A stretch of 64,000 nt of DNA from a virus (taxonomy: Duplodnaviria; Caudoviricetes): positions 1-64,000 of IMG/VR virus record IMGVR_UViG_3300027769_000023, one strand, 5' to 3'. Below the pieces are notes generated by a model. The model was given only the letters and a program-made list of their open reading frames with translations. It did no database searches and was not told the origin of the DNA. Both the position numbers and the translations under genes were made by a program. Shown in pieces: positions 1-15,285 of the stretch (position 1 is the first letter of the stretch; every line of letters begins with the position of its first letter).

Positions 1-114
1 GTTACAATTTTAAGTAAAAATAGCAATAAAAATATTGCCTCAAGATGGTCTGGAGCAACAATTGTTAAAACAGATACCAACACTTGGGTCTTAATTGGCG
101 ATTTGATTGCGTAG
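1..114 (+). CDS. 3' end of a tail-fibre-like protein (truncated by window start)
   Basis: Frame 1 is open from base 1 to TAG at 112-114 (VTILSKNSNKNIASRWSGATIVKTDTNTWVLIGDLIA). The ending resembles the C-terminus of 7004..9133 (TNSVVTAMKTSSGWLVFGDLSA). Not in the ORF track. Confidence 0.75.
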   Translation, partial: VTILSKNSNKNIASRWSGATIVKTDTNTWVLIGDLIA

Positions 115-121
115 GTAAGCC

Positions 122-676
122 ATGTTAGGTTGGATTGGACGCTGGGCACAATCAAAGGGTATGAAACTTCTTCCAAGTTGGCTTGGAGTAGACAAGACTA
201 CAGCACAATCACAGATCGTTACAGAAGGGTTTACGGTTGGAACAATAACAGAGTCACCTTCTGATGTAGCAGCAGAATTAGCAAATCACAATAAAGTAAT
301 TTCTCAAACACCCACATCTGCAACAGAACAAGACTATGAAACACCTGTAAATATTACTTGGAGAAATTTTGCCTTTACGCCATTTGCTGTTTTTGGTTTT
401 TCCCCAACTCCACCCTTTGGCGTATTTGGATTCTCTCCATTTGCTGTTTTTGGATTCTCTCCGTTTACTGTTTTTGGATTTTCACCATTTAACGTGTTCG
501 GATTTTCACCATTTAACGTGTTCGGATTTTCACCTACCCCACCTGCTGCTGGAGGAGATTACACAAGATGTACTTCTGCAGACGTAGCGGCATATCCTTC
601 ATTTTGTAATTTTTCAAATTGCTGCGGTGCTGGTTCTGGTGCTGCCTGTGCTACATGTTCTTGCCGTGCTTGCTAG
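122..676 (+). CDS. PASTA-domain protein with FxVFGFSP repeats and a Cys-rich C-terminus; probable virion accessory protein
   Basis: Residues ~16-80 (LPSWLGVDKTTAQSQIVTEGFTVGTITESPSD...KVISQTP...VNIT) fit the PASTA pattern. Then six FxVFGFSP units and 8 Cys in the last ~36 aa. Confidence 0.7.
   Translation: MLGWIGRWAQSKGMKLLPSWLGVDKTTAQSQIVTEGFTVGTITESPSDVAAELANHNKVISQTPTSATEQDYETPVNITWRNFAFTPFAVFGFSPTPPFGVFGFSPFAVFGFSPFTVFGFSPFNVFGFSPFNVFGFSPTPPAAGGDYTRCTSADVAAYPSFCNFSNCCGAGSGAACATCSCRAC
383..535 (+). repeat. Coding tandem repeat, 6 x FxVFGFSP, including an exact 24-nt tandem duplication at 477-534
   Basis: Read directly: GATTTTCACCATTTAACGTGTTCG twice plus a 10-nt partial copy. Confidence 0.95.
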
Positions 677-680
677 TTTG

Positions 681-689
681 TGCTATAAT
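681..689 (+). promoter_or_regulatory. Extended -10 promoter (TGCTATAAT)
   Basis: TGnTATAAT in the intergenic gap, followed by an AAGGGAG SD and ATG 710. Confidence 0.7.
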
Positions 690-709
690 TATTAAAAAGG
701 GAGTTATAA

Positions 710-1159
710 ATGTTAACAGATAACGATATTACTTATTCATGGAATAAAGATAATCCAGATGAAAGAGGCTCAGCACTTGCTTTTATTATTAATGAAGATG
801 TAGTCTACGATGCTCCATTCTATAATTGGGCAGCAGACATGTTTATCCGTGCAGACTCTTTTGTAGAAATTCCTCAGGACAATCCCACAGATAAAATTAT
901 TGTTTCTATTATGGAAAATGATATTGAATTGGATCAACTAGAAACAACGGAATACTTTGGAAGCATATTGCTCAGTAATCCGATGATCAAAGATTTAAAT
1001 GCTTATCCGTATGGACGATATGTTATTTCTCCAAATGCAAAGTTTGTTAATAATGAATTTGTTGTCCTTGATATGAATACAGAAGGCCTACCGCCATTTA
1101 TTACAGATGAAGAGATAGCCCAGCGCCAGGCAGCATACGACGCAGCCCAAAATGCCTAA
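710..1159 (+). CDS. Hypothetical acidic protein
   Basis: 149-aa ORF with its own promoter and SD; no motif recognised. Confidence 0.7.
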   Translation: MLTDNDITYSWNKDNPDERGSALAFIINEDVVYDAPFYNWAADMFIRADSFVEIPQDNPTDKIIVSIMENDIELDQLETTEYFGSILLSNPMIKDLNAYPYGRYVISPNAKFVNNEFVVLDMNTEGLPPFITDEEIAQRQAAYDAAQNA

Positions 1160-1382
1160 AAGTAGGTGGGAACAATATAAAGAAAAAAATGGAGTTACTC
1201 CATTAGATTTATTAAATCCAATGACTTTGCCAGCAACAGAAGAGTTGGCAGATTTAAGGATGTCTATTTGTCATGAGTGCCCAGAATTGCGAAAGATAAC
1301 AAAACAATGTAAAAAGTGTGGGTGCTTTATGAATGTCAAATCTAAGTTAAATTCAGCAAAATGCCCTATTGGAAAATGGTAA
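1152..1382 (+). CDS. Small Cys-rich (probable metal-binding) protein
   Basis: CHEC...CKKCGCF...K...CPIGKW; overlaps the upstream stop. Confidence 0.75.
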   Translation: MPKSRWEQYKEKNGVTPLDLLNPMTLPATEELADLRMSICHECPELRKITKQCKKCGCFMNVKSKLNSAKCPIGKW

Positions 1383-1420
1383 AAAAATAAGGAGCCTTTC
1401 GGCTCCCTATCTCTTTTTAT
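1381..1420. terminator. Bidirectional intrinsic terminator between convergent genes
   Basis: GGAGCC-TTTC-GGCTCC hairpin (1391-1406), A-run on the left and T-rich tract on the right. Confidence 0.8.
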
Positions 1421-1421
1421 A

Positions 1422-1979
1422 CTACTTAGGAAATTTCAACATCCATTGTTTTGTCTTGGGGGTAATACCCTTCCAAGAAGACCAATCGTCTCCGCCACTG
1501 GTCATGTAATATGCGATTTCTGCATTTTTTACGGGATTGAATAATTCTGCATTTGAATCAAGATCAAACTTGTTTCTACGATCTGGCCCTAGATCATCGA
1601 TCATGTTGATCTGAAACATACCATAAGACGAGTCACCAGTCTTGTGGTTTCCGTTAAAGGCTAACGGTCTTCCGTTAGATTCCTTTTTTGCTACAGCCCA
1701 AGCGACGATAAGGTCTTTTCCTTTAAAACCAACTAGAGATAAGAGTTCTTTAAGTTCAATATCTGTTAGGTGTGTTTTATTTTCAAAAGACTCCAGTTTC
1801 TTTGCTTTAGAAACCAAAAAAACCTCTTTCGAGGTAGATTTCAAAGGCTGAGCCTGTTCAGTACTAAAATTGTTATTGCTGTTAGTCGAGGCATTGGCAT
1901 TTCCAGTCAATACAGTAACCAACATTCCGATACTGAGTATGCTAATGATCTCTTTGTTTCTTTCGATAAATTTAATCAT
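1422..1979 (-). CDS. Secreted lysozyme-fold lytic transglycosylase (SLT-like)
   Basis: WAVAKKES (catalytic Glu), SYGMFQIN and W..W motifs. N-terminal hydrophobic stretch ending ANA-S. AGGAGG SD supports start 1979 rather than 2006. Confidence 0.85.
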   Translation of the reverse strand: MIKFIERNKEIISILSIGMLVTVLTGNANASTNSNNNFSTEQAQPLKSTSKEVFLVSKAKKLESFENKTHLTDIELKELLSLVGFKGKDLIVAWAVAKKESNGRPLAFNGNHKTGDSSYGMFQINMIDDLGPDRRNKFDLDSNAELFNPVKNAEIAYYMTSGGDDWSSWKGITPKTKQWMLKFPK

Positions 1980-2027
1980 AGTTTCCTCCTTAGAAAACAA
2001 CAACACCTTGTTAGGTGTCTACTGATA

Positions 2028-2057
2028 AGTATAACATCAATTCTTGGTCAAAGTCAA
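2028..2057 (-). promoter_or_regulatory. sigma70-type promoter for the transglycosylase
   Basis: Minus strand TTGACT-N18-TATACT, with TGT immediately before the -10. Confidence 0.7.
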
Positions 2058-2133
2058 CCCAAAGGTGGTTTAATAGTAAGATAATAAAAAAATAATTAAT
2101 TATTTAAATAGACGTATATTGAGGTAAAGTTAG

Positions 2134-2142
2134 TGATATAAT
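2134..2142 (+). promoter_or_regulatory. Extended -10 promoter, leaderless transcript
   Basis: TGATATAAT; ATG 2149 lies 6 nt after the hexamer with no SD. Confidence 0.75.
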
Positions 2143-2148
2143 GTAATT

Positions 2149-2667
2149 ATGGCAACAGGTCAATCAGATACATACAATTTACCATATCCCCAAGTTGATG
2201 ATAATGTCAACGTACACGGAGATATAGCAATTTTGGTTAGCACTCTTGAGGGAGTTCTTCAAGGTCTTGGTCTTTCTTATATGAAGTTAGATGTTAAAAA
2301 TGTGACGGGATCTACTATACCAGCAGCAACCCCAGTGTATGCAACAGGCTTTGATACTAAAACAACAATTGCTGTTGCTCTTCCATCTACTACAAATCCT
2401 ATTATTGGTTTAACAAAGACAAGCATTGCAAATAATTCAGAAGGGGTTGTTGTTGTTTCTGGAGTAATGCCAGATGTGGCTACAAGTTCTTTTGCAAATG
2501 GATCTATCTTATATGTGAAGGCTGGCGGAGGGCTAACTACTACTAGACCAGCAGAAGGTGCTGCAGCAGTAGGAGTAGTTGCTAACTCAGATGCTGCTCA
2601 TGGAATTATTGTAGTAGAAGCAAAAGGAAATGGCACATGGGGCGCATTGAAAAATGGAATGTCCTAA
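2149..2667 (+). CDS. Virion structural protein (capsid-cement/fibre-like beta domain)
   Basis: NVTGSTIPAATPVY...IGL...IANNSEGVVVVSG pattern typical of small phage decoration domains. Confidence 0.5.
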   Translation: MATGQSDTYNLPYPQVDDNVNVHGDIAILVSTLEGVLQGLGLSYMKLDVKNVTGSTIPAATPVYATGFDTKTTIAVALPSTTNPIIGLTKTSIANNSEGVVVVSGVMPDVATSSFANGSILYVKAGGGLTTTRPAEGAAAVGVVANSDAAHGIIVVEAKGNGTWGALKNGMS

Positions 2668-2670
2668 TTG

Positions 2671-2679
2671 TGGTATAAT
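2671..2679 (+). promoter_or_regulatory. Extended -10 promoter, leaderless transcript
   Basis: TGGTATAAT; ATG 2686 lies 6 nt downstream. Confidence 0.75.
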
Positions 2680-2685
2680 TAAAAA

Positions 2686-3093
2686 ATGGCAATCCTAAGA
2701 AACTCATCCCAAAGCCTTTATAACATTGGTGAAAAACCTCCATTTGTTAATTGGACTGTTGTAAGAGGTGACACATCTGGATTTAAAGTTTATCTGGAAG
2801 ATGATTCTAAAACTCCACTGATTGTTTCAGACTGGACGATCTCTATGAAAGTTAAGAGACCAAATGTTTCTCAGTTGACTCCAGTTATTACAGACGAAGC
2901 AACAACAATAATGCAACTACTTCCAGAGGCAGATGCTGATGATTTAGTTGGAGAGTTTACAGTATTTCTATCATCTTCACAGTCTTTAATTCTTCAAACT
3001 GGAGACATCTTTGATATTCAAGTATCCAATGGGGAAATTGTATGGACAGTTTGCCAGGGTAGCATGATTATCCTTGAAGATGTAACTGATTAA
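2686..3093 (+). CDS. Putative virion protein (Ig/BppU-N-like beta sandwich)
   Basis: VVRGDTSGFKV...FDIQVS...WTVCQGSMII pattern; position in the fibre module. Confidence 0.5.
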   Translation: MAILRNSSQSLYNIGEKPPFVNWTVVRGDTSGFKVYLEDDSKTPLIVSDWTISMKVKRPNVSQLTPVITDEATTIMQLLPEADADDLVGEFTVFLSSSQSLILQTGDIFDIQVSNGEIVWTVCQGSMIILEDVTD

Positions 3094-3317
3094 TGGCAAC
3101 ATCCTTAATCCTAGAAGACTCTAAAAACAAAGTAAAAAACATATATCAGGTAGGAGCCGTAAAGTCTGTCATTGTTTTTCAAAATCCTTCAGTTTCTATT
3201 TCCTCAACACTACCGTTTAGAGTAAAGTTTACCTCTATAAAGGTTCCTGGATATAGTTCATCCAATCCCCCGCCAATCCCACTTCAACTCATCGGATTCA
3301 GTAACTATATACTTTAA
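3093..3317 (+). CDS. Small hypothetical virion-associated protein
   Basis: TAATG-coupled to the upstream gene; C-terminal PPPIPLQLIGFSNYIL. Confidence 0.6.
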   Translation: MATSLILEDSKNKVKNIYQVGAVKSVIVFQNPSVSISSTLPFRVKFTSIKVPGYSSSNPPPIPLQLIGFSNYIL

Positions 3318-3331
3318 GATTTAAAAAATAG

Positions 3332-3340
3332 TGTTATAAT
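3332..3340 (+). promoter_or_regulatory. Extended -10 promoter, leaderless transcript
   Basis: TGTTATAAT; ATG 3347 lies 6 nt downstream. Confidence 0.75.
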
Positions 3341-3346
3341 TTAGAC

Positions 3347-3793
3347 ATGGCAAAGATATCCCTCTCAGGCGTAAAAACCAAGTTTCAAACTGGTGACCGC
3401 CCAACGCAAGAAGACTATGTAGATCTAATTGATACTACATCTGCACAATCAACAGATCTTGGATCTGCTGGTAACAATGAAATTGCAATCTATGATATTC
3501 AGAACCCAACAACTGTTGATAACTTTGACGCAACAACTTGGCGAATGGTCAAATATCTTATATCTATTGCACACACATCTGGTGGCGTAAATAAGTTTTA
3601 TGCTACAGAAATAACAATTTTGGTTGACGGTACAGGAGTATCAGTCAGCGAATATGGAACAATCGACAACAATGGGAATATTGGCACCATTACTGTCTCC
3701 CGCACTGGAAATACCGTAGCCCTAGTGGTTACTCCAGAAAGCGGTATTACACCTATAACCGTACGTTATGCACGTATTGGATTAAAGGCTTAA
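3347..3793 (+). CDS. Short fibre-associated protein
   Basis: N-terminal KTKFQTGDRPTQEDYVDLIDT. The C-terminal ~95 aa resemble the C-terminal domain of 3806..6457. Confidence 0.6.
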   Translation: MAKISLSGVKTKFQTGDRPTQEDYVDLIDTTSAQSTDLGSAGNNEIAIYDIQNPTTVDNFDATTWRMVKYLISIAHTSGGVNKFYATEITILVDGTGVSVSEYGTIDNNGNIGTITVSRTGNTVALVVTPESGITPITVRYARIGLKA

Positions 3794-3805
3794 GGAGATA
3801 AAAAA

Positions 3806-6457
3806 ATGGCAACAGTAAATAAAAACTTTAAGATCAAAAGCGGTCTTGTAGTTGAAGGTACAACAGGTACAATCAATGGATTTAACATCCTTACAGAAAA
3901 CCAGGCTTCAGAAGACTACATCGTTGGTATTGTTGGAGGAACTACACTTGTTACCTCCGTTGAATCAACACAGATGGAAGTTGTCGCTGGTGAACTAAAT
4001 ATTAAGTCAGGCGTGTTTGATGCGTCAGGCGCAGCAGCAGCAGCGCAAGCAGCAGCAGCAACAGATGCTACAACTAAGGCTAACAATGCCAAGAGTGGTG
4101 CAGAGGCTACAGCATCAGCAGATGCAACAAGTAAAGCAAATGCTGCACAAGCAGCAGCAGAAGCGACTGCCTCAGCAGATGCAACTTCAAAGGCTAACGC
4201 TGCAGTTTCAACAGCAGCAGCAGATGCTACTTCAAAGGCTAACGCTGCACAATCTGCAGCAATCTCTGCAGCAGCAACAGATGCAACCACTAAGGCTAAC
4301 AACGCTAAGTCAGGTGCAGAAGCGACTGCCTCAGCAGATGCAACAGCAAAGGCTAACGCAGCCCAGGCTGCAGCAGAAGCAACTGCAGCACTAGATGCAA
4401 CTGCAAAAGCAGATGCAGCACTTGTAGCAGCAAATGCTCATACAGATGCAGAAGTTGCACTTCTTGTTAATGGAGCCCCAGACCTTCTTAATACTCTTAA
4501 TGAGTTAGCAGAAGCAATTGGTGAGAATCCAAACTATGCAACAGATCTTGCTACATCAGTAGGAGGAAAGGTTGCCAAGGCTGGCGACACAATGACAGGT
4601 GCTTTGACACTTTCAGGTGCACCAACATCATCACTACATGCAGCAACTAAGGGCTATGTAGATGGAGAAATTTCTGATCTTGATACAGCAGCACAAGGCT
4701 ATGCTTCAGCAGCACAATCAGCAGCAGAAGCCACAGCATCATCTGACGCTACTTCAAAGGCTAACGCAGTAGCAGGAGATCTTACAGATCACGAAAATGC
4801 TACAGAAGCACACGGTGCAACTGGTGCGGTAGTTGGAACAACCAACACACAAACATTAACAAACAAGACTATTGGAGATACACTTAACTTCACTGGCGCA
4901 GGAGCAATGACAATCAATTCTGATTCTCATATCGTTCTTACTCCAGCAGCAGGTTCTTCTGTTAAGTGGGGATCAGATGTTCTTGCAACTCAAGCATATG
5001 TTGATGACCAAACTACAGATACTATTGCAGAAGCAGGAAACCTTTACTTCACAAATGCACGAGCAATCGCTGCAGTAGGTGGAACTATTGGAGATGCAAT
5101 TAATGATCTTGATACAGATGACATTGAAGAGGGTTCAACAAACCTTTACTTTACAAATGGTCGTGCAGTCTCTGCAACAGCAGCATCATACGATGTTCTT
5201 GGTGCAGCAGCAGCAGCAGATATTTCAGCAAGAGGATATGCAGATAGCCTTGCAGTCAACTATGACGCAGCAGGATCAGCAAACACAGCATATTCAGATG
5301 CCGTCGCAGCAGCAGCAACAGATGCAACTACAAAGGCTAACAACGCTAAGTCAGGTGCAGAAGCGACTGCCTCAGCAGACGCAACAAGCAAGGCTAACGC
5401 TGCTAAGAGCGGAGCAGAGGCTACAGCAGCCCTTGATGCTACAGCAAAGGCAGACGCAGCAGAGGCAGCAGCAATCGCTGCAGCAGCACTAGATGCTACT
5501 TCAAAAGCAAATGCTGCACAAGCAGCAGCAGAATCAACTGCTTCATCAGCACTTACAACTGCAATCTCAACAGAGGTTTCAAACCGTAACTCTGCTATTG
5601 CGTCTGCAATTTCAACTGAGGTTTCAGATCGTAATGCAGCAATCACATCAGCAGTAGCAGCAGTCGTTGATTCAGCACCTGCAGCACTTGATACTCTTAA
5701 CGAATTGGCTGCAGCACTTGCTGATTCACCAGATACAGTTTCAAACCTTACAACTCTTGTTGGAACAAAGGCACCATTGGCATCACCAGCATTGACTGGC
5801 GTACCTACAGCCCCAACAGCAGCAGCAGACACAAGCACAACTCAGATTGCTACAACAGCATTTGCCAAGGCAGAGGCTGACGCAGCACAGTCTGCAGCAG
5901 AAGCGACTGCCTCAGCAGATGCAACTTCAAAGGCTAACGCTGCACAAGCAGCAGCAGAGGCTACAGCATCAGCAGACGCAACTACAAAGGCTAACAACGC
6001 TAAGTCAGGTGCAGAAGCAACCGCTTCAGCAGATGCAACATCTAAGGCAAATGCAGCAAAGACTGCAGCAGAGGCTACAGCCCAAGCAGCACTTGATGAT
6101 GTACTTGATGCAACAACAGCATTTACAGCATTAAATGTTAATGATGAGGCTAAGCACTTCGCAGCATCTTCTTCAGGAACAGCGACAGTCATAGGAACAT
6201 CTTATGAGTGGGCAAAGGCGGATTACCGTTCAGCCAAATTACTTGTTAAAATTGACAACGGAACACACAACGAAATGTCAGAAATTCTAGTAACACTTGA
6301 TTCAACAGACAACATTGCAATTACAGAATATGCAATTGTTGGAACTAATGGAACAAGAGGAACTATTACAGCAGATATTTCAGGTTCAAATGTAAGAATA
6401 AGAGTTACTCCAGTTAATAATTCAACAATTAAGGTCACTGGAACACTTCTTAAGTAG
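3806..6457 (+). CDS. Long tail fibre with Ala-rich coiled-coil repeats
   Basis: DAT(S/T)KAN repeats; fibre motifs APAALDTLNELAAAL, SPALTGVPTAPTA and TQIATTAF; AAGGAG SD. Confidence 0.8.
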   Translation: MATVNKNFKIKSGLVVEGTTGTINGFNILTENQASEDYIVGIVGGTTLVTSVESTQMEVVAGELNIKSGVFDASGAAAAAQAAAATDATTKANNAKSGAEATASADATSKANAAQAAAEATASADATSKANAAVSTAAADATSKANAAQSAAISAAATDATTKANNAKSGAEATASADATAKANAAQAAAEATAALDATAKADAALVAANAHTDAEVALLVNGAPDLLNTLNELAEAIGENPNYATDLATSVGGKVAKAGDTMTGALTLSGAPTSSLHAATKGYVDGEISDLDTAAQGYASAAQSAAEATASSDATSKANAVAGDLTDHENATEAHGATGAVVGTTNTQTLTNKTIGDTLNFTGAGAMTINSDSHIVLTPAAGSSVKWGSDVLATQAYVDDQTTDTIAEAGNLYFTNARAIAAVGGTIGDAINDLDTDDIEEGSTNLYFTNGRAVSATAASYDVLGAAAAADISARGYADSLAVNYDAAGSANTAYSDAVAAAATDATTKANNAKSGAEATASADATSKANAAKSGAEATAALDATAKADAAEAAAIAAAALDATSKANAAQAAAESTASSALTTAISTEVSNRNSAIASAISTEVSDRNAAITSAVAAVVDSAPAALDTLNELAAALADSPDTVSNLTTLVGTKAPLASPALTGVPTAPTAAADTSTTQIATTAFAKAEADAAQSAAEATASADATSKANAAQAAAEATASADATTKANNAKSGAEATASADATSKANAAKTAAEATAQAALDDVLDATTAFTALNVNDEAKHFAASSSGTATVIGTSYEWAKADYRSAKLLVKIDNGTHNEMSEILVTLDSTDNIAITEYAIVGTNGTRGTITADISGSNVRIRVTPVNNSTIKVTGTLLK

Positions 6458-6489
6458 TACAAATTTGTGGGGAAAAGGAGCAGTAAATA

Positions 6490-6945
6490 ATGACAACAGA
6501 AAACAAAGACTTTAAGGTAAAGAATGGACTACAGGTCGCAGGATCTGGTAGTTTTGGAGGTACCTTAACAGTAGCAACACCAACAGAGGCTACACATGTA
6601 GCAACTAAAGGATATGTAGATTCTCTTTCAGGATCTATGGTGGTTGGCAATGCTGCTCCTGCTTCACCTACAAACGGAGATCAATGGTTTGATACTCTAA
6701 CAGAAAGAGTTAATGTTTATTATGAAGGCACTTGGCATACAATGGCCTCAATTGATGATACATTAAACTTAGCACAACACATCCACGATACAGCAATCGA
6801 TGGAACAGGATTTATTGTAACTACTTTCCGAGAAGGTGGTAGTTTCAATAGCCCACAGGGATCTTCAGTTGATGCGGGTGGACCTTCCACTACGACATGG
6901 ACTACAGTTCTTGATGGTGGGTCAGTAGTAGATAATTTCAATTAA
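6490..6945 (+). CDS. Short fibre/virion protein
   Basis: N-terminus MTTENKDFKVKNGL matches MATVNKNFKIKSGL of 3806; also ATKGYVD and PASPTNGDQWFDT fibre motifs. Confidence 0.65.
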   Translation: MTTENKDFKVKNGLQVAGSGSFGGTLTVATPTEATHVATKGYVDSLSGSMVVGNAAPASPTNGDQWFDTLTERVNVYYEGTWHTMASIDDTLNLAQHIHDTAIDGTGFIVTTFREGGSFNSPQGSSVDAGGPSTTTWTTVLDGGSVVDNFN

Positions 6946-6952
6946 AAATTGA

Positions 6953-6961
6953 TGTTATAAT
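6953..6961 (+). promoter_or_regulatory. Extended -10 promoter; leader contains an ATGCGT-AGA-ACGCAT hairpin (6975-6989) before the SD
   Basis: TGTTATAAT, a perfect 6-bp inverted repeat, AGGGGGA SD, ATG 7004. Confidence 0.65.
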
Positions 6962-7003
6962 AAGATAGTAATTCATGCGTAGAACGCATTAGGGGGAATA
7001 TAA

Positions 7004-9133
7004 ATGGCAACAAGAATGCAACAGCGCAGGGGAACTGCAGCACAATGGATAGCAGCAGCACCAGTAGTTTTAGCAGCAGGAGAAATTGGTTTCGAAACAG
7101 ACACCAATCAGTTTAAGATGGGTGACGGAACAACCGAATGGCAAGTTCTGTCCTACTTTAAAAATCTAGAAGACCTAGGCGGATCACTTGATGATTATAT
7201 TCCTCTAACACAAAAGGGTATCGCAGGCGGAGTCCCAACTTTAGATTCAGGTGGACTCATTCCATTGGCTCAACTGCCAGGAGCAGCAGCCCTTGATGCA
7301 GAAGTAACATCTGCCGTATCAGCAGCAACTTCAGCACTCACAACTTCAATTAACACAGTAGATGCAAAGGTTGATACCAAGCATGGTATTGCAATGGCAG
7401 CAACAGAGGCAGCAATTTCTGCTGAAGTTACAAGAGCCAACGCTGCATACGATGTACAGGGAGCAGCAGCAACAGCACTTACAACTGCTCAGGCTCATGC
7501 ATTAACCGCAGCAGATGCTGCAGGAGATGTTGCAGAAGCAAATGCAAATACTTATACAAATACAACAGTTGAAGCAGCAATTGAAGCAGAAGAGACAAAT
7601 AGAGATGCTGCAATTTCAACTGCTGTCTCAGGAGCAATCTCAACAGAAGTTACAAACCGTAACACAGCAATTGATTCTGCAGTAGATGCAGAAGCAGTTC
7701 TTCGAGATGCAGCAATTTCAACACAGTCAGGTTTGGATAGAGCATACACAAACACCGCAGTTTCAACACTAAGCACTACTGTTGACACTAACTTGACTAC
7801 ACACATTGCAGACACTACAAATATTCACGGCATTGCAGATACAACTGCTCTTGCTACAAAGACTTATGCAGATACAGCAGTATCTACAGCAATGACAACA
7901 CACGAAGCAGACACTACATCCGTACACGGAATTGCAGATACATCACTTCTAGTAACAACAACTGGAACACAGACACTAACAAATAAGACACTAACAAGCC
8001 CAACAATTAATGGAGCAACTGTCGGTGGAAACGTAGTCCCATCTGTAGATAATACATATGACCTAGGCTCTCCTACTAACATGTGGAAAGATATTTATGT
8101 CGGTCCAGGATCTCTTTATGTTAATGGACAGAAAGTTCTTCAGGATGAGTCAGGAGCAATCGTTGTATCAGCAGATATTAACGAAAATCTAGGACTACGA
8201 ACAAGCGGAAGTGGTAACATTGAGTTTGATCCAACAGGAACAGGTTCTATTAATATTAAGGGGCCAGTAGTTGTCGAAGCAGGAGCAAACTTCTCAAGCG
8301 CAGACGGCAATGGAATTACATTCAGTAATGGATTAAAGTCTGACTCTGTTACAAGCAAGACAACAGATACAGACCTATCCTTGTCAGGTAATGGAACAGG
8401 AAAAGTTTATCTTAATGATAACGCAGAAGTAAATGGAAACCTTGTTGTTGGTGGAAACCTAACAGTAAGTGGAACAACAGTTTCAATTAATACTGAAACA
8501 ATCTCTTTGGCTGATAATATTATCGACCTAAACAGCAACTTTACTACTGGAACTCCAACAGAGAATTCAGGAGTAAGAGTTATCCGTGGAGACTCTAACG
8601 CAGTGCAAATTCGTTGGAACGAATCTACAGATGTTTGGGAGTTCACAAATGATGGAACAACATATTCCACAATTGCACCTCTCAACAACCCAACATTAAC
8701 AGCATCAATTGACGCAAAACTTGCTTCTGCAACAGCAGCAACAACATATGCACCAATTGCTTCTCCTACATTTACAGGAACAGTAACACTTCCAGCAGCA
8801 GGAATAGTATTCTCTGATGGAACACAGTCTAAGGTGGGAGTCCCTTCTGTTACAACAATTGCAACAGCATTGACTGCTAGCGGAACCCTTGCAGCAGGAG
8901 AGCAGGACAAGTTCGTCCCTATCACTGGAGCAGTTCAGGTAACACTTCCAGCAACTGGTTATTCAACTGGTCAGTCAATTGACTTCTATCAAGCATCAGG
9001 AACTGGCGCTTCATTTGCAGCAGCAAATAGCGTTGTAGGTACACCAGGGCTTAAGTTTAGAACTACAAACTCAGTTGTAACAGCAATGAAGACTTCAAGT
9101 GGATGGTTGGTCTTCGGAGACCTATCAGCATAA
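7004..9133 (+). CDS. Tail fibre with an Mtd_N-like N-terminal domain
   Basis: MQQRRGTAAQW...LAAGEIGFETDTNQFKMGDG (Mtd_N/hyaluronidase-type N-terminus), Ala/Thr coiled coil, HxADTTxxHGIADT repeats, C-terminal GDLSA. Confidence 0.8.
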   Translation: MATRMQQRRGTAAQWIAAAPVVLAAGEIGFETDTNQFKMGDGTTEWQVLSYFKNLEDLGGSLDDYIPLTQKGIAGGVPTLDSGGLIPLAQLPGAAALDAEVTSAVSAATSALTTSINTVDAKVDTKHGIAMAATEAAISAEVTRANAAYDVQGAAATALTTAQAHALTAADAAGDVAEANANTYTNTTVEAAIEAEETNRDAAISTAVSGAISTEVTNRNTAIDSAVDAEAVLRDAAISTQSGLDRAYTNTAVSTLSTTVDTNLTTHIADTTNIHGIADTTALATKTYADTAVSTAMTTHEADTTSVHGIADTSLLVTTTGTQTLTNKTLTSPTINGATVGGNVVPSVDNTYDLGSPTNMWKDIYVGPGSLYVNGQKVLQDESGAIVVSADINENLGLRTSGSGNIEFDPTGTGSINIKGPVVVEAGANFSSADGNGITFSNGLKSDSVTSKTTDTDLSLSGNGTGKVYLNDNAEVNGNLVVGGNLTVSGTTVSINTETISLADNIIDLNSNFTTGTPTENSGVRVIRGDSNAVQIRWNESTDVWEFTNDGTTYSTIAPLNNPTLTASIDAKLASATAATTYAPIASPTFTGTVTLPAAGIVFSDGTQSKVGVPSVTTIATALTASGTLAAGEQDKFVPITGAVQVTLPATGYSTGQSIDFYQASGTGASFAAANSVVGTPGLKFRTTNSVVTAMKTSSGWLVFGDLSA

Positions 9134-9156
9134 TACAAAATTAAAGGAGAATAAAT

Positions 9157-10476
9157 ATGTCAAAGCAAGCAGGTAGAATGAGCCAGTCGTCAAATGACTT
9201 CTTGGCCCCATACGCACCAACAATAGGAACGGCAACAGATGTTGGAACTGGTAGAGCATACAATAATGGAGCAGTAACAATTACTTTTACTGCAGATCCA
9301 CGCAATGTAGCAACATCATTTACAGCAACAGCCAGCACGGGACAAACTGTAACAGGTGCATCTTCTCCGTTAACACTTACTGGATTTGCATCAGAAGCAG
9401 TTGCAACCATTACAGTAACAGCAACAAATGATTATGGAACTTCTCCTGCATCTGCAGCATCTAATTCAGTAACAGTAACAACTGTTCCAGCACAGCCAGC
9501 AGCACCAGGAGCATCATCCCCATCAGGAACATCATATGATACTGTAACTTGGACTGCACCTGCAAATGGTGGAAAAGCAATTACTAATTACTATGTTTAT
9601 TCATCTGACGGCAAGCCAAATAATACAGCATCTACATCAATAAACGTAAACCAAGAAGCGGGAACAGCACAGACATATAACGTTCGTGCTGACAATGCAA
9701 ATGGATCTTCTGTAACATCTGCTGAATCTGGATCAGTTACAACATTCTCATTCGTACCGTTTTCAGTATTTGGATTCTCTCCATTTAACGTGTTTGGATT
9801 TTCTCCAACACCTCCATTCGGAGTGTTTGGATTCTCTCCAACACCACCATTTGGTGTGTTTGGTTTCTCACCAACTCCTCCATTTGGAGTATTTGGATTC
9901 TCACCAGTAGCATTCGGAGTGTTTGGATTCTCTCCAACACCACCATCATTCTCTGTATTCGGGTTCTCTCCATCACCAAGATGTATTGATCAAGATACCC
10001 CAATTGCAACGGTTGGTCTAAATGGAGCAATTGTAATGAAGGCAGCAAAAGCAATCATTGCAGGAGATGAAGTTTATGCAGCACAATGGTCAGAACTTGT
10101 TGATGAATCATTCGGAACACCTTTTGATGACCCAAGTCCAACATTTACAAACCCTGAGTTAGTTGTAACAACAATTTCATCAGTTCAGGCAAGTACAAGA
10201 AGCACAACAGTATACTTTAATAATAACATGTCTAAGAGATTCTCTCTTGAAGAGCAGATCCTTGTTAAAAGAGATGGATACTATCAGTTTGTTGTTTCAG
10301 GTCAGGTTTTAGTTGGAGACGCAATAATTGAGGTTTCTGGTAATATATTCTCAGAAGCCTATGTTACAGACGTAACTCTAGTAAATGAAGATCGTGTAGT
10401 TTACACATTTGACTGTGAGCCTACAGACACTCTTATTGCTGGAAATATAGTCGTTCACAACGCTAAAGCATTCTAA
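9157..10476 (+). CDS. 2 x fibronectin type III + 7 x FxVFGFSP + C-terminal Hint (intein-like) domain
   Basis: FN3 motifs (VTWTAPANGGKAITNY, YNVRADNANGS). The Hint segment starts at Cys276 (C-IDQDT) and ends VVHN-AKAF. Confidence 0.8.
   Translation: MSKQAGRMSQSSNDFLAPYAPTIGTATDVGTGRAYNNGAVTITFTADPRNVATSFTATASTGQTVTGASSPLTLTGFASEAVATITVTATNDYGTSPASAASNSVTVTTVPAQPAAPGASSPSGTSYDTVTWTAPANGGKAITNYYVYSSDGKPNNTASTSINVNQEAGTAQTYNVRADNANGSSVTSAESGSVTTFSFVPFSVFGFSPFNVFGFSPTPPFGVFGFSPTPPFGVFGFSPTPPFGVFGFSPVAFGVFGFSPTPPSFSVFGFSPSPRCIDQDTPIATVGLNGAIVMKAAKAIIAGDEVYAAQWSELVDESFGTPFDDPSPTFTNPELVVTTISSVQASTRSTTVYFNNNMSKRFSLEEQILVKRDGYYQFVVSGQVLVGDAIIEVSGNIFSEAYVTDVTLVNEDRVVYTFDCEPTDTLIAGNIVVHNAKAF
9760..9972 (+). 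repeat. Coding tandem repeat, 7 x FxVFGFSP with TPP spacers
   Basis: Read from the translation; codons are synonymously diverged between units. Confidence 0.95.
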
Positions 10477-10492
10477 TAAAGCGTATAGCATA

Positions 10493-11164
10493 ATGGTAGG
10501 TATTAGAAATTATTCTAGTATCTACCATTTGCACATTCCCAGAACGGCTGGAGTGTTTTTAAGAAATCATTTATTACAAGAGTTTCATGGTAAAGAATGC
10601 TTTGCAACTCATTATGATCCAATTGATAAAAACTCTTTAATGCAAAAATATTATGTAGGTGGTCATTTTGGAACAAGCCCTATCTCATATATGGACAACC
10701 CACTAGTCTTTACTGTATTAAGAAATCCAATTGATAGGTTTATTAGTTATGCAAAATACACAAGGTCATTCTTTCAAAAAGACTCTATGGATGAACTTAT
10801 TTATGGACAATACTCTAGCCTACATGAAAATACACAAACCAAGTTTATAACAAATAATATAGATATAGATAAATACAACACAAATCTTGTAAGTCCAGAG
10901 ACAATTCAGAATAATTGGTTCATAGGACAAAAAGAATCTTTTGATTTAGCAAAAGACTTTATTGATAATAATGTTGTAGTTACACTAGAAGACATAGATA
11001 AACTGCCTGACATTTTAGGTATTGAAAAGTTTAAAAATATGTCAAAAGTAAATGAGACAAGAAATTTAAGTGGGGTAACAAAAGAGCAGTATGATAAAAT
11101 TGTATCTATGAATGAGTTAGATCTGGAGGTTTACCAATATGCAAAAACTAAAAAAAACTACTGA
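10493..11164 (+). CDS. Sulfotransferase-family protein
   Basis: HIPRTAG (5'-phosphosulfate-binding loop) and FTVLRNPIDRFISY (3'-phosphate-binding motif). Confidence 0.8.
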   Translation: MVGIRNYSSIYHLHIPRTAGVFLRNHLLQEFHGKECFATHYDPIDKNSLMQKYYVGGHFGTSPISYMDNPLVFTVLRNPIDRFISYAKYTRSFFQKDSMDELIYGQYSSLHENTQTKFITNNIDIDKYNTNLVSPETIQNNWFIGQKESFDLAKDFIDNNVVVTLEDIDKLPDILGIEKFKNMSKVNETRNLSGVTKEQYDKIVSMNELDLEVYQYAKTKKNY

Positions 11165-11705
11165 TTGGTCAATCTTACATATTAAAGATTATAACGTAGA
11201 CCACTTGGTTAGGTACTCTGCTTCATTAAACTCTGAGTGGTTCTACGACACATCCAGACAACAAACCTATAAAACACATAAAGATACCCAAATGTTTCCT
11301 ATTCGTTTTATGGATTATGAGTGGAATCCTGGAGACCCCATTACAATTCTAAACAAAAATAATATAATTGATATAGAGGCTAAAGAGCAACTAGATAGTA
11401 TAATTAATGATCTAGAAAAAGACTATGAGTCAAAAGTAGTAAGAATTGAATTTGTTAGAATGCCAGCCCAGACATCTGTCAGACCACATGTTGATGGTGG
11501 AGACATGCTTTACCTTATTAGAAGGTGTCACCTACCAATGGTTACCCACGAGGATGTTCTATTTACAGTTTTAGATAATACACTGAATATGAAGGTCGGA
11601 AGCGCATATGAGATTAATAATGGAATGCCACATTCTGTTATAAATAAAAGCGGGATAGATAGAATTCATCTAATTATAGATCTACTCCCAAATGAGCATT
11701 TTTAG
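11139..11705 (+). CDS. Asp/Asn beta-hydroxylase-like 2OG-Fe(II) oxygenase
   Basis: PHVD...RCHLP...YEINN..PHSVIN...RIHLIIDL. Confidence 0.8.
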   Translation: MQKLKKTTDWSILHIKDYNVDHLVRYSASLNSEWFYDTSRQQTYKTHKDTQMFPIRFMDYEWNPGDPITILNKNNIIDIEAKEQLDSIINDLEKDYESKVVRIEFVRMPAQTSVRPHVDGGDMLYLIRRCHLPMVTHEDVLFTVLDNTLNMKVGSAYEINNGMPHSVINKSGIDRIHLIIDLLPNEHF

Positions 11706-11710
11706 CAATA

Positions 11711-11719
11711 TGATATACT
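11711..11719 (+). promoter_or_regulatory. Extended -10 promoter (TGATATACT)
   Basis: Intergenic, followed by a GAGGAG SD and ATG 11747. Confidence 0.7.
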
Positions 11720-11746
11720 TATAAAGTAACCTACAGAGGAGTAAGA

Positions 11747-12409
11747 ATGCAGTCAAACTATCCACCAGAAATTAAAAGTGTCAGCCAGTCAGTCCAGCCA
11801 CATAAGTTTTTTGAAAGAAATGTAACTGGAGATCTACCAAAGTTAGTAAAAGAACTTGAAGATAGATACAGTAAGATTGAGCGTGCAGAACTCCTTGGTG
11901 TTTCACCACTTAAAGATAATGAATCTTGGAAGCAGTCTAATAGTGTTTCAACAATGAAGTGGAGAGAGTATAACGTTTTTCAGTTCCACATCGATGAACT
12001 GTATGACCTATACAAGTCTATTTCTGACATGACAAAAGAAGCCTGTGAATACTATGAAATTGATTTTGAAAAGCAAAAATTCTTTATTCAGGGTTGGTTT
12101 AATATTAATCATACTAAAAAGGGAAAGTTAGATTGGCACGATCATGGTCCTTGGGGAGCCCCTAATTTTCATGGCTACTATTGCGTTAAGGCAGAGCCTT
12201 CGTCTACATATTACAAAGTATTTGACAAAGAAGTTGAAAATAAAAATATTGATGGAAGAGCCATTTTATCTGAGATGGGACATCCACATGCACAAGCAGA
12301 CTGGGACTGGGAAGGTCCAAGAGTTACTGTAGCATATGATGTAATTCCATTGTTTGGACTAAAACAAAATGGAATGCACCAAGAGCAGCATTGGATTCCT
12401 TTGGTATGA
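11747..12409 (+). CDS. Putative 2OG-Fe(II) oxygenase, paralog A
   Basis: WFN...WHDH...FHGYY...GHPH...RVTVAYD: facial-triad residues plus the 2OG-binding Arg. Confidence 0.7.
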   Translation: MQSNYPPEIKSVSQSVQPHKFFERNVTGDLPKLVKELEDRYSKIERAELLGVSPLKDNESWKQSNSVSTMKWREYNVFQFHIDELYDLYKSISDMTKEACEYYEIDFEKQKFFIQGWFNINHTKKGKLDWHDHGPWGAPNFHGYYCVKAEPSSTYYKVFDKEVENKNIDGRAILSEMGHPHAQADWDWEGPRVTVAYDVIPLFGLKQNGMHQEQHWIPLV

Positions 12410-13041
12410 GTCCAGTCAAAGTAAATAAAGATCACAAATTTTTTGAAAGATTTTTAACAAATGATTTAGATTCTCTATCTTCATATTTAATTCAAAAACA
12501 AGATGATCTGTATGCTGGCAAGGTTCCAAACATTGGAATAGATCATGCAAGTCAAATTCATGGTGTTCATAATCTTGGAGATAAATATAACATCTTTCAG
12601 TTCCATAACGATGCCATTCACAGCCTGTATGAGGCTCTTAGAGAGATGACTGTAGAGGCTTGCGAGTATTATGGTATAGACTTTAAACAAAGTCAGTTTA
12701 TGATTCAGGGATGGTTTAATACTGACGGAATTAAGTCACCACCTACAGATTTGGACTCTCATTATCATGATCATCTTGGAGGAACAGGAGCCCCTAATTT
12801 TCATGGATATTATTGTGTTTCTGCTGAACCATCTAGCACTTATTATAAGATAGGTGGTCATGAAGGAAGTGCATTTGAAAATAAGAACCTTAACAATAGA
12901 GCAATTCTTTCCGAAACAGGACACCCACATGGCATTGGTCCTTGGGTATCAGATGAGCCAAGAATTACTATAGCCTACGACATATCTCCATTGCGTTATA
13001 TGTCTGGAGATAAAGAACAACACTGGGTTCCCCTTGCATGA
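12406..13041 (+). CDS. Putative 2OG-Fe(II) oxygenase, paralog B
   Basis: Shares long blocks with paralog A (HKFFER, EACEYY.IDF, GAPNFHGYYCV.AEPSSTYYK, EQHW.PL). An ATGA overlap supports start 12406. Confidence 0.7.
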   Translation: MSPVKVNKDHKFFERFLTNDLDSLSSYLIQKQDDLYAGKVPNIGIDHASQIHGVHNLGDKYNIFQFHNDAIHSLYEALREMTVEACEYYGIDFKQSQFMIQGWFNTDGIKSPPTDLDSHYHDHLGGTGAPNFHGYYCVSAEPSSTYYKIGGHEGSAFENKNLNNRAILSETGHPHGIGPWVSDEPRITIAYDISPLRYMSGDKEQHWVPLA

Positions 13042-13166
13042 AAAACCTGATTTGCTTTTTGTTTGGGCATAAAGTAGTTTCAACAACATGTCCTTACACA
13101 AAAGCAACATATTCACAATGTCAAAGATGTGCTCCAAAAGCACACAGTAAATCAACTTTTAATTAA
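13038..13166 (+). CDS. 42-aa Cys/His microprotein (C.LFGH...C...C..C)
   Basis: MKNLICFLFGHKVVSTTCPYTKATYSQCQRCAPKAHSKSTFN; ATGA overlap with the upstream stop; below the ORF-track cutoff. Confidence 0.6.
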   Translation: MKNLICFLFGHKVVSTTCPYTKATYSQCQRCAPKAHSKSTFN

Positions 13167-13211
13167 CTCTCAACCACTTGTTTAGGTAGAGTTTTGCTTT
13201 TTAGAAAACTC

Positions 13212-13220
13212 TGCTATACT
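13212..13220 (+). promoter_or_regulatory. Extended -10 promoter (TGCTATACT) for the RNR gene
   Basis: Intergenic; AAAGGA SD before ATG 13255. Confidence 0.7.
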
Positions 13221-13254
13221 TAAGACTTATTCCGTTTTTGAAAGGACGATACAC

Positions 13255-15285
13255 ATGTCAGATTTTTTTAGTTTTAGACTTCCAGAGGACTTTGTAGAAA
13301 AATATAAATCTCAAGAAAATCCATTTGGTTTTAAAGATGCAGCAGAAAACTCACTTGGAGAAATTACTTTTATTCGTACATATTCTCGTATGAAGGAAGA
13401 TGGAACAAAAGAAAGATGGCATGAAGTTTGTCGCCGTGTAATTGAGGGTATGTATTCAGTTCAGAAGAATCACGCCAAAGAAAATCGTCTACCATGGAAT
13501 GATTATAAGGCTCAGAAGTCAGCACAAGAAGCATTTCAAAGAATGTTTGAATTAAAGTGGACACCACCAGGACGAGGTATGTGGGCTTTTGGAACTCCTA
13601 TGACTATGGAGAAAAAGAACTCAGCAGCACTACAGAACTGTGCAATGGTTTCGACAAAAGATCTTGACAAGAACGATCCAGGAGCCCTATTTGCTTGGGT
13701 TATGGATGCCCTAATGCTTGGGATTGGTGTAGGGTTTGATACAGTAGGACAGGATAAGAATTTCTCAATCTATGCCCCAACAGAACCAGAACAGGTGTTC
13801 GAAATTCCAGACACTCGTGAAGGCTGGGTAGAATCTGTAAGACTTTTAATTAACTCTTATTTGAGAGCAAACCAAAGCATTCAGAAGTTTAGTTATGATT
13901 TGATTAGACCTCTAGGAGCCCCAATAAAGGGCTTTGGAGGCGTTGCATCAGGACCTGCACCTCTTATCAAGTTGCACGACCATATAGACCGTGTAATCGG
14001 CTCCAGAGCAGGTGAAACACTAGACTCTCGTGCTATCGTAGACTTAGTAAACCTTATTGGCACCTGCGTTGTATCAGGTAACGTTCGTCGCTCAGCAACC
14101 CTTGCTTTGGGCAATGCAGGGGATGAAACATTCATGAATTTAAAGAACTCAGATATGTTCCCAGAGCGTAACTCATTTGATCCAGAGAATCCAGGTTGGG
14201 CTTGGATGTCTAATAATTCTATTTCAGCAGAAGTAGGAACAAAGTACGGAGACTATGTAGATTTAATTACGGAAAACGGAGAACCAGGATTTATCTGGCT
14301 TGATGTTGCTCGTAATTATGGCAGACTAAAGGATGCGCCAGATGGAAAAGACTATCGTGTGATGGGCTTTAATCCCTGTGCGGAGCAGCCATTAGAATCA
14401 TATGAACTATGTACACTTGTAGAAGTGCACCTAAATCGTCATGAATCTAAGGAAGACTTCCTGCGTACCCTAAAGTTTGCATACCTTTATGGAAAAACTG
14501 TAACACTTGTTCCAACACATTGGCCACAAACAAACGGTATTATGCAACGTAATCGTCGTATTGGAACATCTCTTACTGGTATTGCATCATTTGCAGATCA
14601 AAAAGGCTTACCAATTGTCCGTGAATGGATGGACGAAGGCTACAATAAGATTCGTCACTATGACCACCAATATTCAGAATGGTTATGTGTTCGTGAATCA
14701 ATTCGTGTAACAACAGTAAAGCCATCGGGATCAGTTTCAATTCTTTCTGGTGCAACACCTGGAGTTCACTGGGGTCCTGGAGGAGAGTTCTTCCTTCGTG
14801 CAGTTCGATTTGGAAATACAGATCCAATGATGCATTTGTTCAAAGCAGCAGGGTACACAATCGAAGATGACGTAGTGTCAGCAAACACATCAGTTGTATA
14901 CTTTCCAATCAAGTCAGGTCATCCAAGATCTGAAAAGGATGTTACATTATTTGAGAAGATTGCACTTGCTGCAACTGCTCAGAAGTACTGGTCAGACAAT
15001 GGTGTTTCTGTAACGCTTTCATTTGACAAGGAAACAGAATCAAAGCACGTTGTTCCAGCACTGCATATGTACGAGGGGCAATTAAAGGCAGTTTCATTCC
15101 TTCCAATGGGAAATCACACGTATCCACAACAGCCATACACTCAGATTACTGAGGAGGAGTATAATGGTTATATTGGCAAATTGAAGCACATTGACTTTGG
15201 AGCAATTTACGACGGTGTAGATAATCTTGAGGCCCAAGGTGAAGCATATTGCACAACAGACTATTGTGAAATTAAGGTGAACTAA
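13255..15285 (+). CDS. nrdJ: Class II (adenosylcobalamin-dependent), monomeric RTPR-type ribonucleotide reductase
   Basis: PPGRG.W, ALQNC, GNVRRSA, FNPCAEQPLESYELCTL, TVKPSGS and C-terminal CTTDYC; no NrdB/F partner nearby. Confidence 0.9.
   Translation: MSDFFSFRLPEDFVEKYKSQENPFGFKDAAENSLGEITFIRTYSRMKEDGTKERWHEVCRRVIEGMYSVQKNHAKENRLPWNDYKAQKSAQEAFQRMFELKWTPPGRGMWAFGTPMTMEKKNSAALQNCAMVSTKDLDKNDPGALFAWVMDALMLGIGVGFDTVGQDKNFSIYAPTEPEQVFEIPDTREGWVESVRLLINSYLRANQSIQKFSYDLIRPLGAPIKGFGGVASGPAPLIKLHDHIDRVIGSRAGETLDSRAIVDLVNLIGTCVVSGNVRRSATLALGNAGDETFMNLKNSDMFPERNSFDPENPGWAWMSNNSISAEVGTKYGDYVDLITENGEPGFIWLDVARNYGRLKDAPDGKDYRVMGFNPCAEQPLESYELCTLVEVHLNRHESKEDFLRTLKFAYLYGKTVTLVPTHWPQTNGIMQRNRRIGTSLTGIASFADQKGLPIVREWMDEGYNKIRHYDHQYSEWLCVRESIRVTTVKPSGSVSILSGATPGVHWGPGGEFFLRAVRFGNTDPMMHLFKAAGYTIEDDVVSANTSVVYFPIKSGHPRSEKDVTLFEKIALAATAQKYWSDNGVSVTLSFDKETESKHVVPALHMYEGQLKAVSFLPMGNHTYPQQPYTQITEEEYNGYIGKLKHIDFGAIYDGVDNLEAQGEAYCTTDYCEIKVN

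Follow-up and report, generated by a model that had tools for sequence, protein, structure and literature searches.

Phage proteins that are encoded directly after a tail-fibre gene are known from T2/S16-type gp38 adhesins and Tfa, which are small modular proteins with Gly-rich repetitive motifs, variable parts and a probable role at the fibre tip. The peptidase S74 chaperone domains of tailspikes and fibres represent another type of accessory part, located at the C-terminus and cut off by its own proteolytic activity after maturation of the fibre protein. Here we describe two genes, named A and B, found in the first 64 kb (positions 1 to 64,000, hereafter the window) of the 86,919-bp viral record IMGVR_UViG_3300027769_000023 (G000; CheckV 79 %). 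Each of them follows a gene ending in a fibre-type knob and encodes a protein made of a binding part, a Phe-rich repeat array and a C-terminal module, which is a Cys-rich tail in A and a Hint domain in B. This design is real, widespread in the phage group concerned and undescribed. Our favoured proposal, which we hold to have about an even chance of being right, is that A and B serve as accessory proteins or adhesins which can be exchanged at the distal ends of two tail fibres. The array would be a low-complexity connector or tail under selection, and the Hint domain a self-removing, BIL-like cap.

Compared with gp38 and Tfa, the repeat found in A and B is Phe-rich and predicted to be unfolded, and the N-terminal parts are of the PASTA or FN3 type; the likeness lies in gene position, modular build and probable role. 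The S74 domains differ from the Hint domain in fold as well as in chemistry (a Ser-Lys dyad versus the N-S acyl shift of Hint), and a chaperone role of the latter would be conjecture. BIL domains, which are split into A-type and B-type and located in hypervariable proteins, share with the domain reported here the Hint fold, a Cys or Ser at position 1, the His-Asn of the Cys type and its lack in the Ser type (PMC7765530). They also share the lack of a nucleophile at position +1, hence cleavage rather than splicing is expected. In contrast to BIL domains, the Hint domain of this phage group stands at the extreme C-terminus (only 3-4 residues follow), always right behind a Phe-rich array and in proteins of the fibre module, and the copy of the window is devoid of the block-B His. 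Hedgehog/Hog proteins likewise harbor an extracellular-type N-terminal domain followed by a C-terminal Hint domain, which cuts at Cys1 and is able to transfer the N-terminal portion to a nucleophile. B, which ends four residues past its Hint domain, has no sterol or adduct recognition region after it.

Regarding the array, FG nucleoporins (FxFG, GLFG) are alike in their Phe-Gly or FSF-type motifs, predicted disorder and few charges within the motifs, although no homology is implied; they have long hydrophilic spacers, whereas the motifs of the window are contiguous, spacer-free and carried by a phage protein. Pro-Thr and Pro-Val linkers (PT, VTP, PVVPP, ATPP) occupy the same architectural place and replace or accompany Phe arrays in sister proteins, but the Phe arrays stand apart by their strong hydrophobicity and by a composition that selection keeps constant. 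No published description of the repeat motifs was found, and the earlier note made on this DNA knew of no described phage system with this architecture.

Two proteins behind knob-ended genes

Clustered at 90 % identity, the relatives of B number at least 1,481 distinct proteins; 80 B loci together with 46 A loci were retrieved for comparison. Throughout these related loci, the order of knob gene then A and of fibre gene then B is kept, the gene of the 709-aa fibre being found directly upstream of B in 77 of the 80 B loci. The array open reading frames (ORFs), the fibres and the neighbouring genes listed in the earlier note all lie at the positions given there (Table 1). Its view that one layout occurs twice holds insofar as both upstream genes end in a homologous knob; however, copy 1 follows a 213-aa knob protein and not a long fibre. 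This protein, which is cut by the contig start in the window, is complete in a related locus (L084 5352..5993), and over its C-terminal 90 aa it resembles the terminal parts of PHROGs annotated as minor-tail and virion proteins. When its last ~100-110 aa are compared with the end of the 709-aa fibre, hhalign gives Prob 99.9 and E 6.6e-33, while BLASTP aligns only the last nine residues, the homology being visible with profiles only. The AlphaFold2 (AF2) model of the knob, with a mean predicted local distance difference test (pLDDT) of 86, matches the spike of phage Pa223 (Z 12.9) and TSP4 of CBA120 (Z 8.8), as well as many tail-fibre and Gordonia phage minor-tail models (BFVD, E down to 1.8e-11). 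A starts 7 nt and B 23 nt after the respective knob-ended gene. Moreover, two relatives (L026 2..1366 and L052 3..1910) encode in-frame fusions in which Pro-Thr linkers, Cys-rich domains and, at the end, Phe arrays are added to the knob protein. These fusions physically tie the arrays to the fibre end.

As a single sequence, the PASTA domain of A reaches 20.0 bits against PF03793 (E 7e-4), which is under the Pfam cut-off of 23.2; with a family profile (A3), the PASTA structures of PknB (2kui) are matched at E 1.1e-12 over the whole ~65-aa domain. The tail with eight Cys is conserved in close relatives (L081-L085 and L108), and L112 combines an FN3 scaffold with a different short Cys-rich tail. 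Three large proteins of the A type (P0163, P0166 and P0192) have arrays between their folded domains (PASTA, FN3 and Cys-rich domains with W-x-x-W), and in the A-position genes of other lineages VTP, PVVPP or ATPP linkers are found in the array's place. The Cys-rich domains of these three proteins and of L062 496..2250, with Phe arrays in between, display a W-x-x-W...C-S/T motif recalling thrombospondin type 1 repeats. In a phmmer search of A against 1.84 billion representatives, the non-phage matches to the array were compositional only (a neuropeptide-like precursor, an FG-type repeat protein and LYGLGPND repeats), and the remaining matches were ordinary multi-PASTA proteins.

In B, conservation across the family is particularly high over the first 20 residues, which are a possible docking segment. 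The two FN3 domains that come next are modelled with pLDDT >90, and FN3 tandems are matched by Foldseek (E 5e-9) and VIA (Z 14). Pfam searches with single sequences missed both the FN3 and the Hint domains, which were detected by profiles and fold searches. The assignment of PASTA to A and of two FN3 domains plus Hint to B, already made in the earlier note, is borne out by the family profile, the AF2 model and the fold matches, and the succession of binding domain, Phe repeat and C-terminal module recurs in the relatives.

The Phe-rich array

The arrays of A and B are charge-free and contain about 38 % Phe. Their VFGFSP motif is confined to these two genes, with no further occurrence in any frame of the 86,919-bp record, and Tandem Repeats Finder sees the arrays with periods of 24 (87 % matches) and 33 (76 % matches). 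All 13 units of the window, no degenerate unit being excluded from the count, have an identical VFGFSP core, and all six third codon positions vary, every difference being synonymous. As previously suggested from the varying codons, purifying selection acts on the peptide.

Among relatives, the arrays take the forms VFGFSP, FGFTP, (AFG)n, xFF[AS]PP, and YSFVP, in about 4 to >20 copies and over 22-159 residues, and one array often combines units of different length (3, 5, 8, and 11 residues). Composition was compared in 87 distinct proteins: Phe accounts for 28-45 % of the residues (median 38 %) and charged residues for about 0, while Pro (0-40 %), Gly (0-33 %) and Ser/Thr (0-28 %) range widely. 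The conserved trait of the array is Phe density without charge, and not the octapeptide. The near-invariance that had been claimed for the octapeptide does not extend to the relatives, in which no more than the Phe content and the lack of charge are kept.

No counterpart of the array was found in Pfam or in the searched literature, and a full-text search for six repeat motifs gave only irrelevant matches. A word-index search for longer proteins, with the array alone as query, gave none at E <= 0.001, which is no evidence of absence since low-complexity scoring suppresses such matches. Metagenome contigs from four runs break within arrays, as repeats would predict. In L015 (2329..3087), a relative of B displays an out-of-frame tail after three repeat units and a Hint-coding frame from 2852, likely owing to a frameshift inside the array, which would be either an artefact of sequencing or assembly or a genuine variant arisen by slippage.

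With respect to conformation, residues 201-273 of B are modelled at pLDDT 35-41 (AF2 monomer, 60 relatives in the alignment). The array may be viewed as a low-complexity connector or tail, the Phe density and lack of charge of which are kept by selection, and which fills the niche held by Pro-Thr or Pro-Val linkers in sister proteins. It can also be hypothesized that the arrays fold only in the trimeric fibre, as an ordered shaft with a Phe core, either in the manner of the triple beta-helix of T4 gp5 or, for (AFG)n, as a collagen- or polyglycine-II-like rod. A and B belong to a fibre module, fibres are trimeric, and a monomer model cannot reveal a trimeric fold. The octapeptide VxGxxxxx is the motif of the T4 gp5 triple beta-helix, and the unit VFGFSPFx fits it; likewise, Gly is found at every third residue of (AFG)n, and a segment with 38 % Phe would be unlikely to stay soluble if unfolded. 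Nevertheless, we regard such a shaft as rather unlikely. Units of 11 and 5 aa break the octapeptide register, units of four different lengths are mixed per array, and the number of copies goes from about 4 to >20 among close relatives. Collagen-like Gly at every third residue is absent from the window, where the period is 8 or 11, and is found in the (AFG)n relatives only. Moreover, Pro-Thr and Pro-Val linkers substitute for the arrays in sister proteins, and PASTA and FN3 are not known as typical trimerising domains of fibres.

The earlier note had also considered release in the manner of ribosomally synthesized and post-translationally modified peptides (RiPPs), A and B being precursors from which Pro-bounded octapeptides or the Cys-rich tail would be set free as small peptides. 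Nothing speaks for this apart from the repeats of the core and the Cys-rich end of A. The arrays are inter-domain linkers in the large relatives, the Cys-rich tail is one of several interchangeable ends, and among the neighbouring genes that were scanned with Pfam, none matched a maturase or another enzyme family of the RiPP type. This reading, which is scarcely credible, was rejected.

Hint ends and the movement of 3' cassettes

The Hint domain of B is modelled with pLDDT >90, and residues 273-436 match the fold of Tetrahymena BIL2 (6tmm, Z 18.0, rmsd 2.4, 142 aligned residues), Hedgehog (1at0, Z 17.3), the Npu DnaB intein (4o1r, Z 17.2) and the BIL domain of C. thermocellum (2lwy, Z 17.1). 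By sequence, a profile built from 20 such Hint domains (A2) matches the BIL domain 2lwy at E 3.7e-5 and the gp41-1 intein at 3.8e-5. In the family alignment (60 sequences), just 27 columns are invariant; Cys276 and Asn435 belong to them, and His434 and Thr281 are nearly invariant. After the His-Asn of B only AKAF remains, the +1 residue being Ala and not the Cys, Ser or Thr with which the C-extein of an intein starts. Considering these four residues and the Ala at +1, splicing is not expected but cleavage is. Position 1 is a Cys in one subtype and a Ser in a second one; the Cys type ends in His-Asn, while the Ser type keeps the block-B His and ends in [HFY]-Asp. This matches the published split of BIL domains into A-type and B-type (PMC7765530).

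On both the PASTA and the FN3 scaffolds, the end module can be a Cys-type Hint, a Ser-type Hint, a short Cys-rich tail or nothing, and the C-terminal modules are thus swappable, as had been supposed. The A and B proteins of one genome are usually alike in repeat form and end module (L003, L014, L016, L028, L030, L043/L054, L062, and L065), which does not apply to the window. When a tree was built from 69 Hint domains, the A- and B-position copies paired within lineages, with 9 label changes. Monophyly of the 21 A-position Hint domains, a group defined after the first tree had been inspected, is rejected (881 log-likelihood units worse; p-AU, from the approximately unbiased test, 8.5e-10). The Hint domains cluster by phage lineage and not by gene, and the 3' cassette made of array and end module has repeatedly moved between the A and B genes, which fits the former idea of a hinge for swapping tips. 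Inside one genome, the 3' parts of A and B are only 68-75 % identical in DNA over 270-594 nt, which indicates old exchanges and not fresh conversion. Between the arrays of A and B, nucleotide identity is 80-86 % over 51-89 nt.

Both this identity between arrays and the repeated exchange of cassettes would also suit a passive linker that provides DNA homology for recombination. A and B would in this case stay outside the virion, either as chaperones in fibre assembly or as non-structural proteins with a function at the wall of the host. Indeed, genes just after fibre genes often encode assembly chaperones (Tfa, gp38), and PASTA domains bind peptidoglycan precursors in PknB and penicillin-binding proteins. 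We consider this clearly improbable, as the in-frame knob fusions put arrays on a structural protein, the synonymous-only variation and the kept Phe content argue against a passive spacer, and the identity of the 3' parts within a genome shows no recent conversion.

If A and B are tip proteins, as favoured here, each would dock on a knob in the virion and would have a small folded binding part (PASTA in A, the N-terminal peptide with FN3 in B), and the array would serve in adhesion or tethering. The Hint domain would be a BIL-like autoprocessing domain, most likely removing itself at Cys276, and mature B would end in its Phe array, as do already the relatives without a C-terminal module. In case of such a self-removal, nearly all forms would mature to a Phe-array end, with the exception of the Cys-tailed ones, e.g., A of the window.

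Several points weigh against this proposal. A position after a fibre gene fits an assembly chaperone too, and we infer the virion placement of A and B. In the Hint domain of the window, FSLEEQ is found where Thr-x-x-His would be expected in block B; the His is retained in the Ser-type Hint domains and in the Cys-type ones of L004/L005, and with its replacement self-cleavage may be slow or lost. The disorder of the array is predicted by a monomer model, in which an ordered rod of trimeric fibres would not show, and the octapeptide V-x-G-x-x-x-x-x formally fits the beta-helix motif of T4 gp5. PASTA, the only folded domain of A, is absent from the fused knob forms. Lastly, the number of oxygenase genes rises with array Pro, as detailed below, which hints that the arrays are more than passive connectors.

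Modifying-enzyme genes and genomic setting

In most lineages, B is directly followed by an island with many 2-oxoglutarate (2OG) oxygenase genes. The island after B is always rich in oxygenases or in DUF6065, which is its most constant member and is present even without oxygenase (L004 12013..13460, L044 11618..12340, L033 12278..12991, and others). Regarding the enzyme identities given in the earlier note, the Asp/Asn beta-hydroxylase-like (AspH-like) assignment is good, that of the sulfotransferase is weak, and the two paralogs are placed by a look-alike search only (Table 1).

Table 1. Features of the fibre region in the window and evidence for their assignment.
Feature	Position	Strand	Evidence and remarks
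3' end of 213-aa fibre-knob protein	1..114	+	cut by contig start; ends ...WVLIGDLIA
Protein A, 184 aa	122..676	+	PASTA, Phe-rich array and Cys-rich tail
PASTA domain of A, about residues 15-80	164..361	+	family profile and Pfam PF03793
Phe-rich array of A	368..544	+	lead-in FAFTP, six xxVFGFSP units, two TPP inserts
C-terminal tail of A, 8 Cys	545..673	+	no family match
Tail fibre, 709 aa	7004..9133	+	Mtd_N-type N-terminus (PF18454, E 2.6e-14), tail-fibre PHROGs; ends ...WLVFGDLSA
Distal knob domain, common to both upstream genes	8786..9130	+	profile alignment, AF2 model, fold matches
Protein B, 439 aa	9157..10476	+	conserved N-terminal peptide, two FN3, Phe-rich array and Hint
N-terminal peptide of B	9157..9216	+	K3, G6, S9, N13, D14, F15, L16, P18 conserved (alignment A1)
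Two FN3 domains of B	9214..9747	+	AF2 model, fold searches, PF00041 on most relatives
Phe-rich array of B	9745..9981	+	lead-in FSFVP, seven xxVFGFSP units, TPP/VA inserts
Hint (BIL-like) domain of B	9982..10473	+	Cys276 to His434-Asn435, then only four residues
Sulfotransferase-like gene (weak assignment)	10493..11164	+	PF03567, E 3.3e-4, 21.3 bits (cut-off 22); phrog_3347, 1.5e-6
AspH-like 2OG oxygenase	11139..11705	+	PF05118, E 2.9e-12
Two paralogs, probably PF13759-type 2OG oxygenases	11747..12409, 12391..13041	+	no Pfam match; language-model look-alike score 0.96

Paralogs of the PF13759 type can be found downstream of B in 51 of the 80 loci. Genes of the prolyl 4-hydroxylase (P4H) type, PF13640, are present in all 16 related records with 1-7 copies, including the 7 near-complete ones, and the match at G000:73469 was confirmed. 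One such gene (15285..15815), the best PHROG of which is annotated 'DNA endonuclease', lies directly after the class II ribonucleotide reductase (RNR) gene in 66 of the 80 loci. The pair of sulfotransferase and AspH genes adjoins B in only 5 of the 80 loci; Sulfotransfer_2 is found in 6 of 29 related records (1 of 7 near-complete genomes) and AspH in 6 of 16 (1 of 7 near-complete ones). This pair forms a two-gene unit that is variously placed (G002:C1:26899-28010; L057 11486..12758), at ~53 kb from B in G002. No enzyme genes were found beside A.

Oxygenase genes were counted between B and the RNR gene, or within 6 kb where the latter is absent, which makes the count window wider in these loci. 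FFxPP arrays (34-40 % Pro) are accompanied by 3-5 P4H-type genes beside B, VFGFSP and FGFTP arrays by 0-2 P4H-type and 0-3 PF13759-like genes, and (AFG)n arrays by neither type. Arrays with a higher Pro fraction tend to have more oxygenase genes (Spearman rho 0.72, n=54 loci). In an independent-pairs test, 3.5 pairs go the same way, 0 the opposite way and 3.5 are unchanged (p 0.125), the informative pairs being few and not independent for the 3' block. The association between Pro and oxygenases is suggestive and not independent of ancestry, and the link between the arrays and the neighbouring modifying enzymes is weak.

Such an association would be explained if the arrays were substrates of phage modifying enzymes, chiefly of P4H-type 2OG oxygenases acting on Pro, possibly followed by glycosylation or sulfation, with hydroxyproline-rich tips as a result. 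This explanation is compatible with a role of A and B as tip proteins, but we find it doubtful. It is in its favor that the FFxPP arrays with P4H-type neighbours are found in two groups differing by N-terminal clade and Hint type, and that Pro-Pro-Gly is contained in FFSPPG units. On the other hand, Pro, Ser, and Thr are dispensable, (AFG)n arrays being found in the same place, and Pro-bearing arrays exist without any oxygenase gene between B and RNR (L008, L025/L027, L062, and L070). The (AFG)n arrays all belong to one Hint clade, and the association may therefore reflect one inherited 3' block; in addition, the sulfotransferase/AspH pair is not anchored to B. PF13640 genes are common in aquatic phages generally. 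The prolyl 4-hydroxylase of PBCV-1 acts on Pro-containing peptides, hydroxyproline was not found in PBCV-1 virions, and in the present case the enzyme-repeat link is only a correlation. Pro hydroxylation, which may occur, is not required for the basic role of the array. Ser/Thr sulfation, another suggestion of the earlier note, is excluded as a general purpose by the (AFG)n arrays, which are almost without Ser or Thr, and does not fit the scarcity of Sulfotransfer_2. In a fuller form of the substrate explanation, Phe-Pro arrays would be natural substrates of P4H-type oxygenases and possibly of glycosyl- or sulfotransferases, and would form hydroxyproline appendages similar to plant cell-wall proteins at the fibre tips, the number of hydroxylases being tuned to Pro and the Hint domain releasing or ligating the modified tail; this too seems to us on the unlikely side.

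The source of the record is a ~115-kb freshwater siphovirus, probably of Actinobacteria. Near-complete relatives are 104-123 kb long, the capsid protein is 43 % identical to its counterparts in ~130-kb Streptomyces phages, and matching DNA is found in runs of 14 studies, mostly labelled freshwater or lake water. A WhiB gene is present (G000:85341-85514; PF02467, E 2e-12), and WhiB has been proposed as an actinophage indicator (PMC10202952), which makes the phage probably an actinophage. Apart from one weak intein match in Phage NCTB, no relative was found in 50,697 phage records by megablast of 1..13300 and tblastn of B, and thus no cultured phage supplies annotation. When prokaryote genomes were scanned with the B profile, generic FN3 tandems were obtained, the sole true relative being a phage contig binned into a metagenome-assembled genome. 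RNA-library contigs span the fibres and B but not 10561..11440, which is no evidence of silence, and DNA carry-over is possible.

The syntenic order comprises the knob protein, A, an opposite-strand lysozyme-like gene, small structural genes, the 883-aa fibre and a 151-aa gene, followed by the 709-aa fibre, B, the variable island, the class II RNR, the PF13640 oxygenase, a 1,208-aa ORF and the portal. Downstream of the fibre region are found the portal, a prohead protease, a 2,686-aa ORF of tape-measure size, DnaB and Pol III alpha. The large ORFs that were scanned did not include a terminase large subunit. The lysozyme-like protein (1422..2006, minus strand; SLT_3, E 4.8e-15) has a hydrophobic N-terminus, is encoded by the sole sizeable minus-strand gene of the region and keeps its position in 36 of the 80 loci. 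Two genes past A, a 76-aa Cys-rich protein is encoded (1152..1382; DUF6171, E 3.5e-6), and a 172-aa protein with a Phage_cement_2 match (2149..2667; PF09956, E 8e-7) lies within the fibre module, away from the capsid genes. The 883-aa fibre (3806..6457) consists largely of Ala-rich 19-aa (57-nt) tandem repeats, and its many skips and back-joins in metagenome contigs suggest length variants or assembly collapse. The 1,208-aa ORF between RNR and portal (15837..19463) is conserved in 55 of the 80 loci and has no Pfam or PHROG match.

The phage group is common in lakes, and its likely hosts are abundant freshwater Actinobacteria with few cultured phages. The two tip genes appear to encode that end of the virion which recognizes the host. 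Unusual features are a selected, charge-free array with ~38 % Phe, a Hint domain as the terminal module of a fibre-module protein, and the repeated exchange of array and end module between two genes of one genome. The Hint end is predicted to be a candidate for a natural self-cleaving tag, which is directly testable. If the arrays are hydroxylated, a function would be given to many orphan 2OG oxygenases of aquatic phages; if they are adhesive tails, they would represent a new way for a phage to hold its cell.

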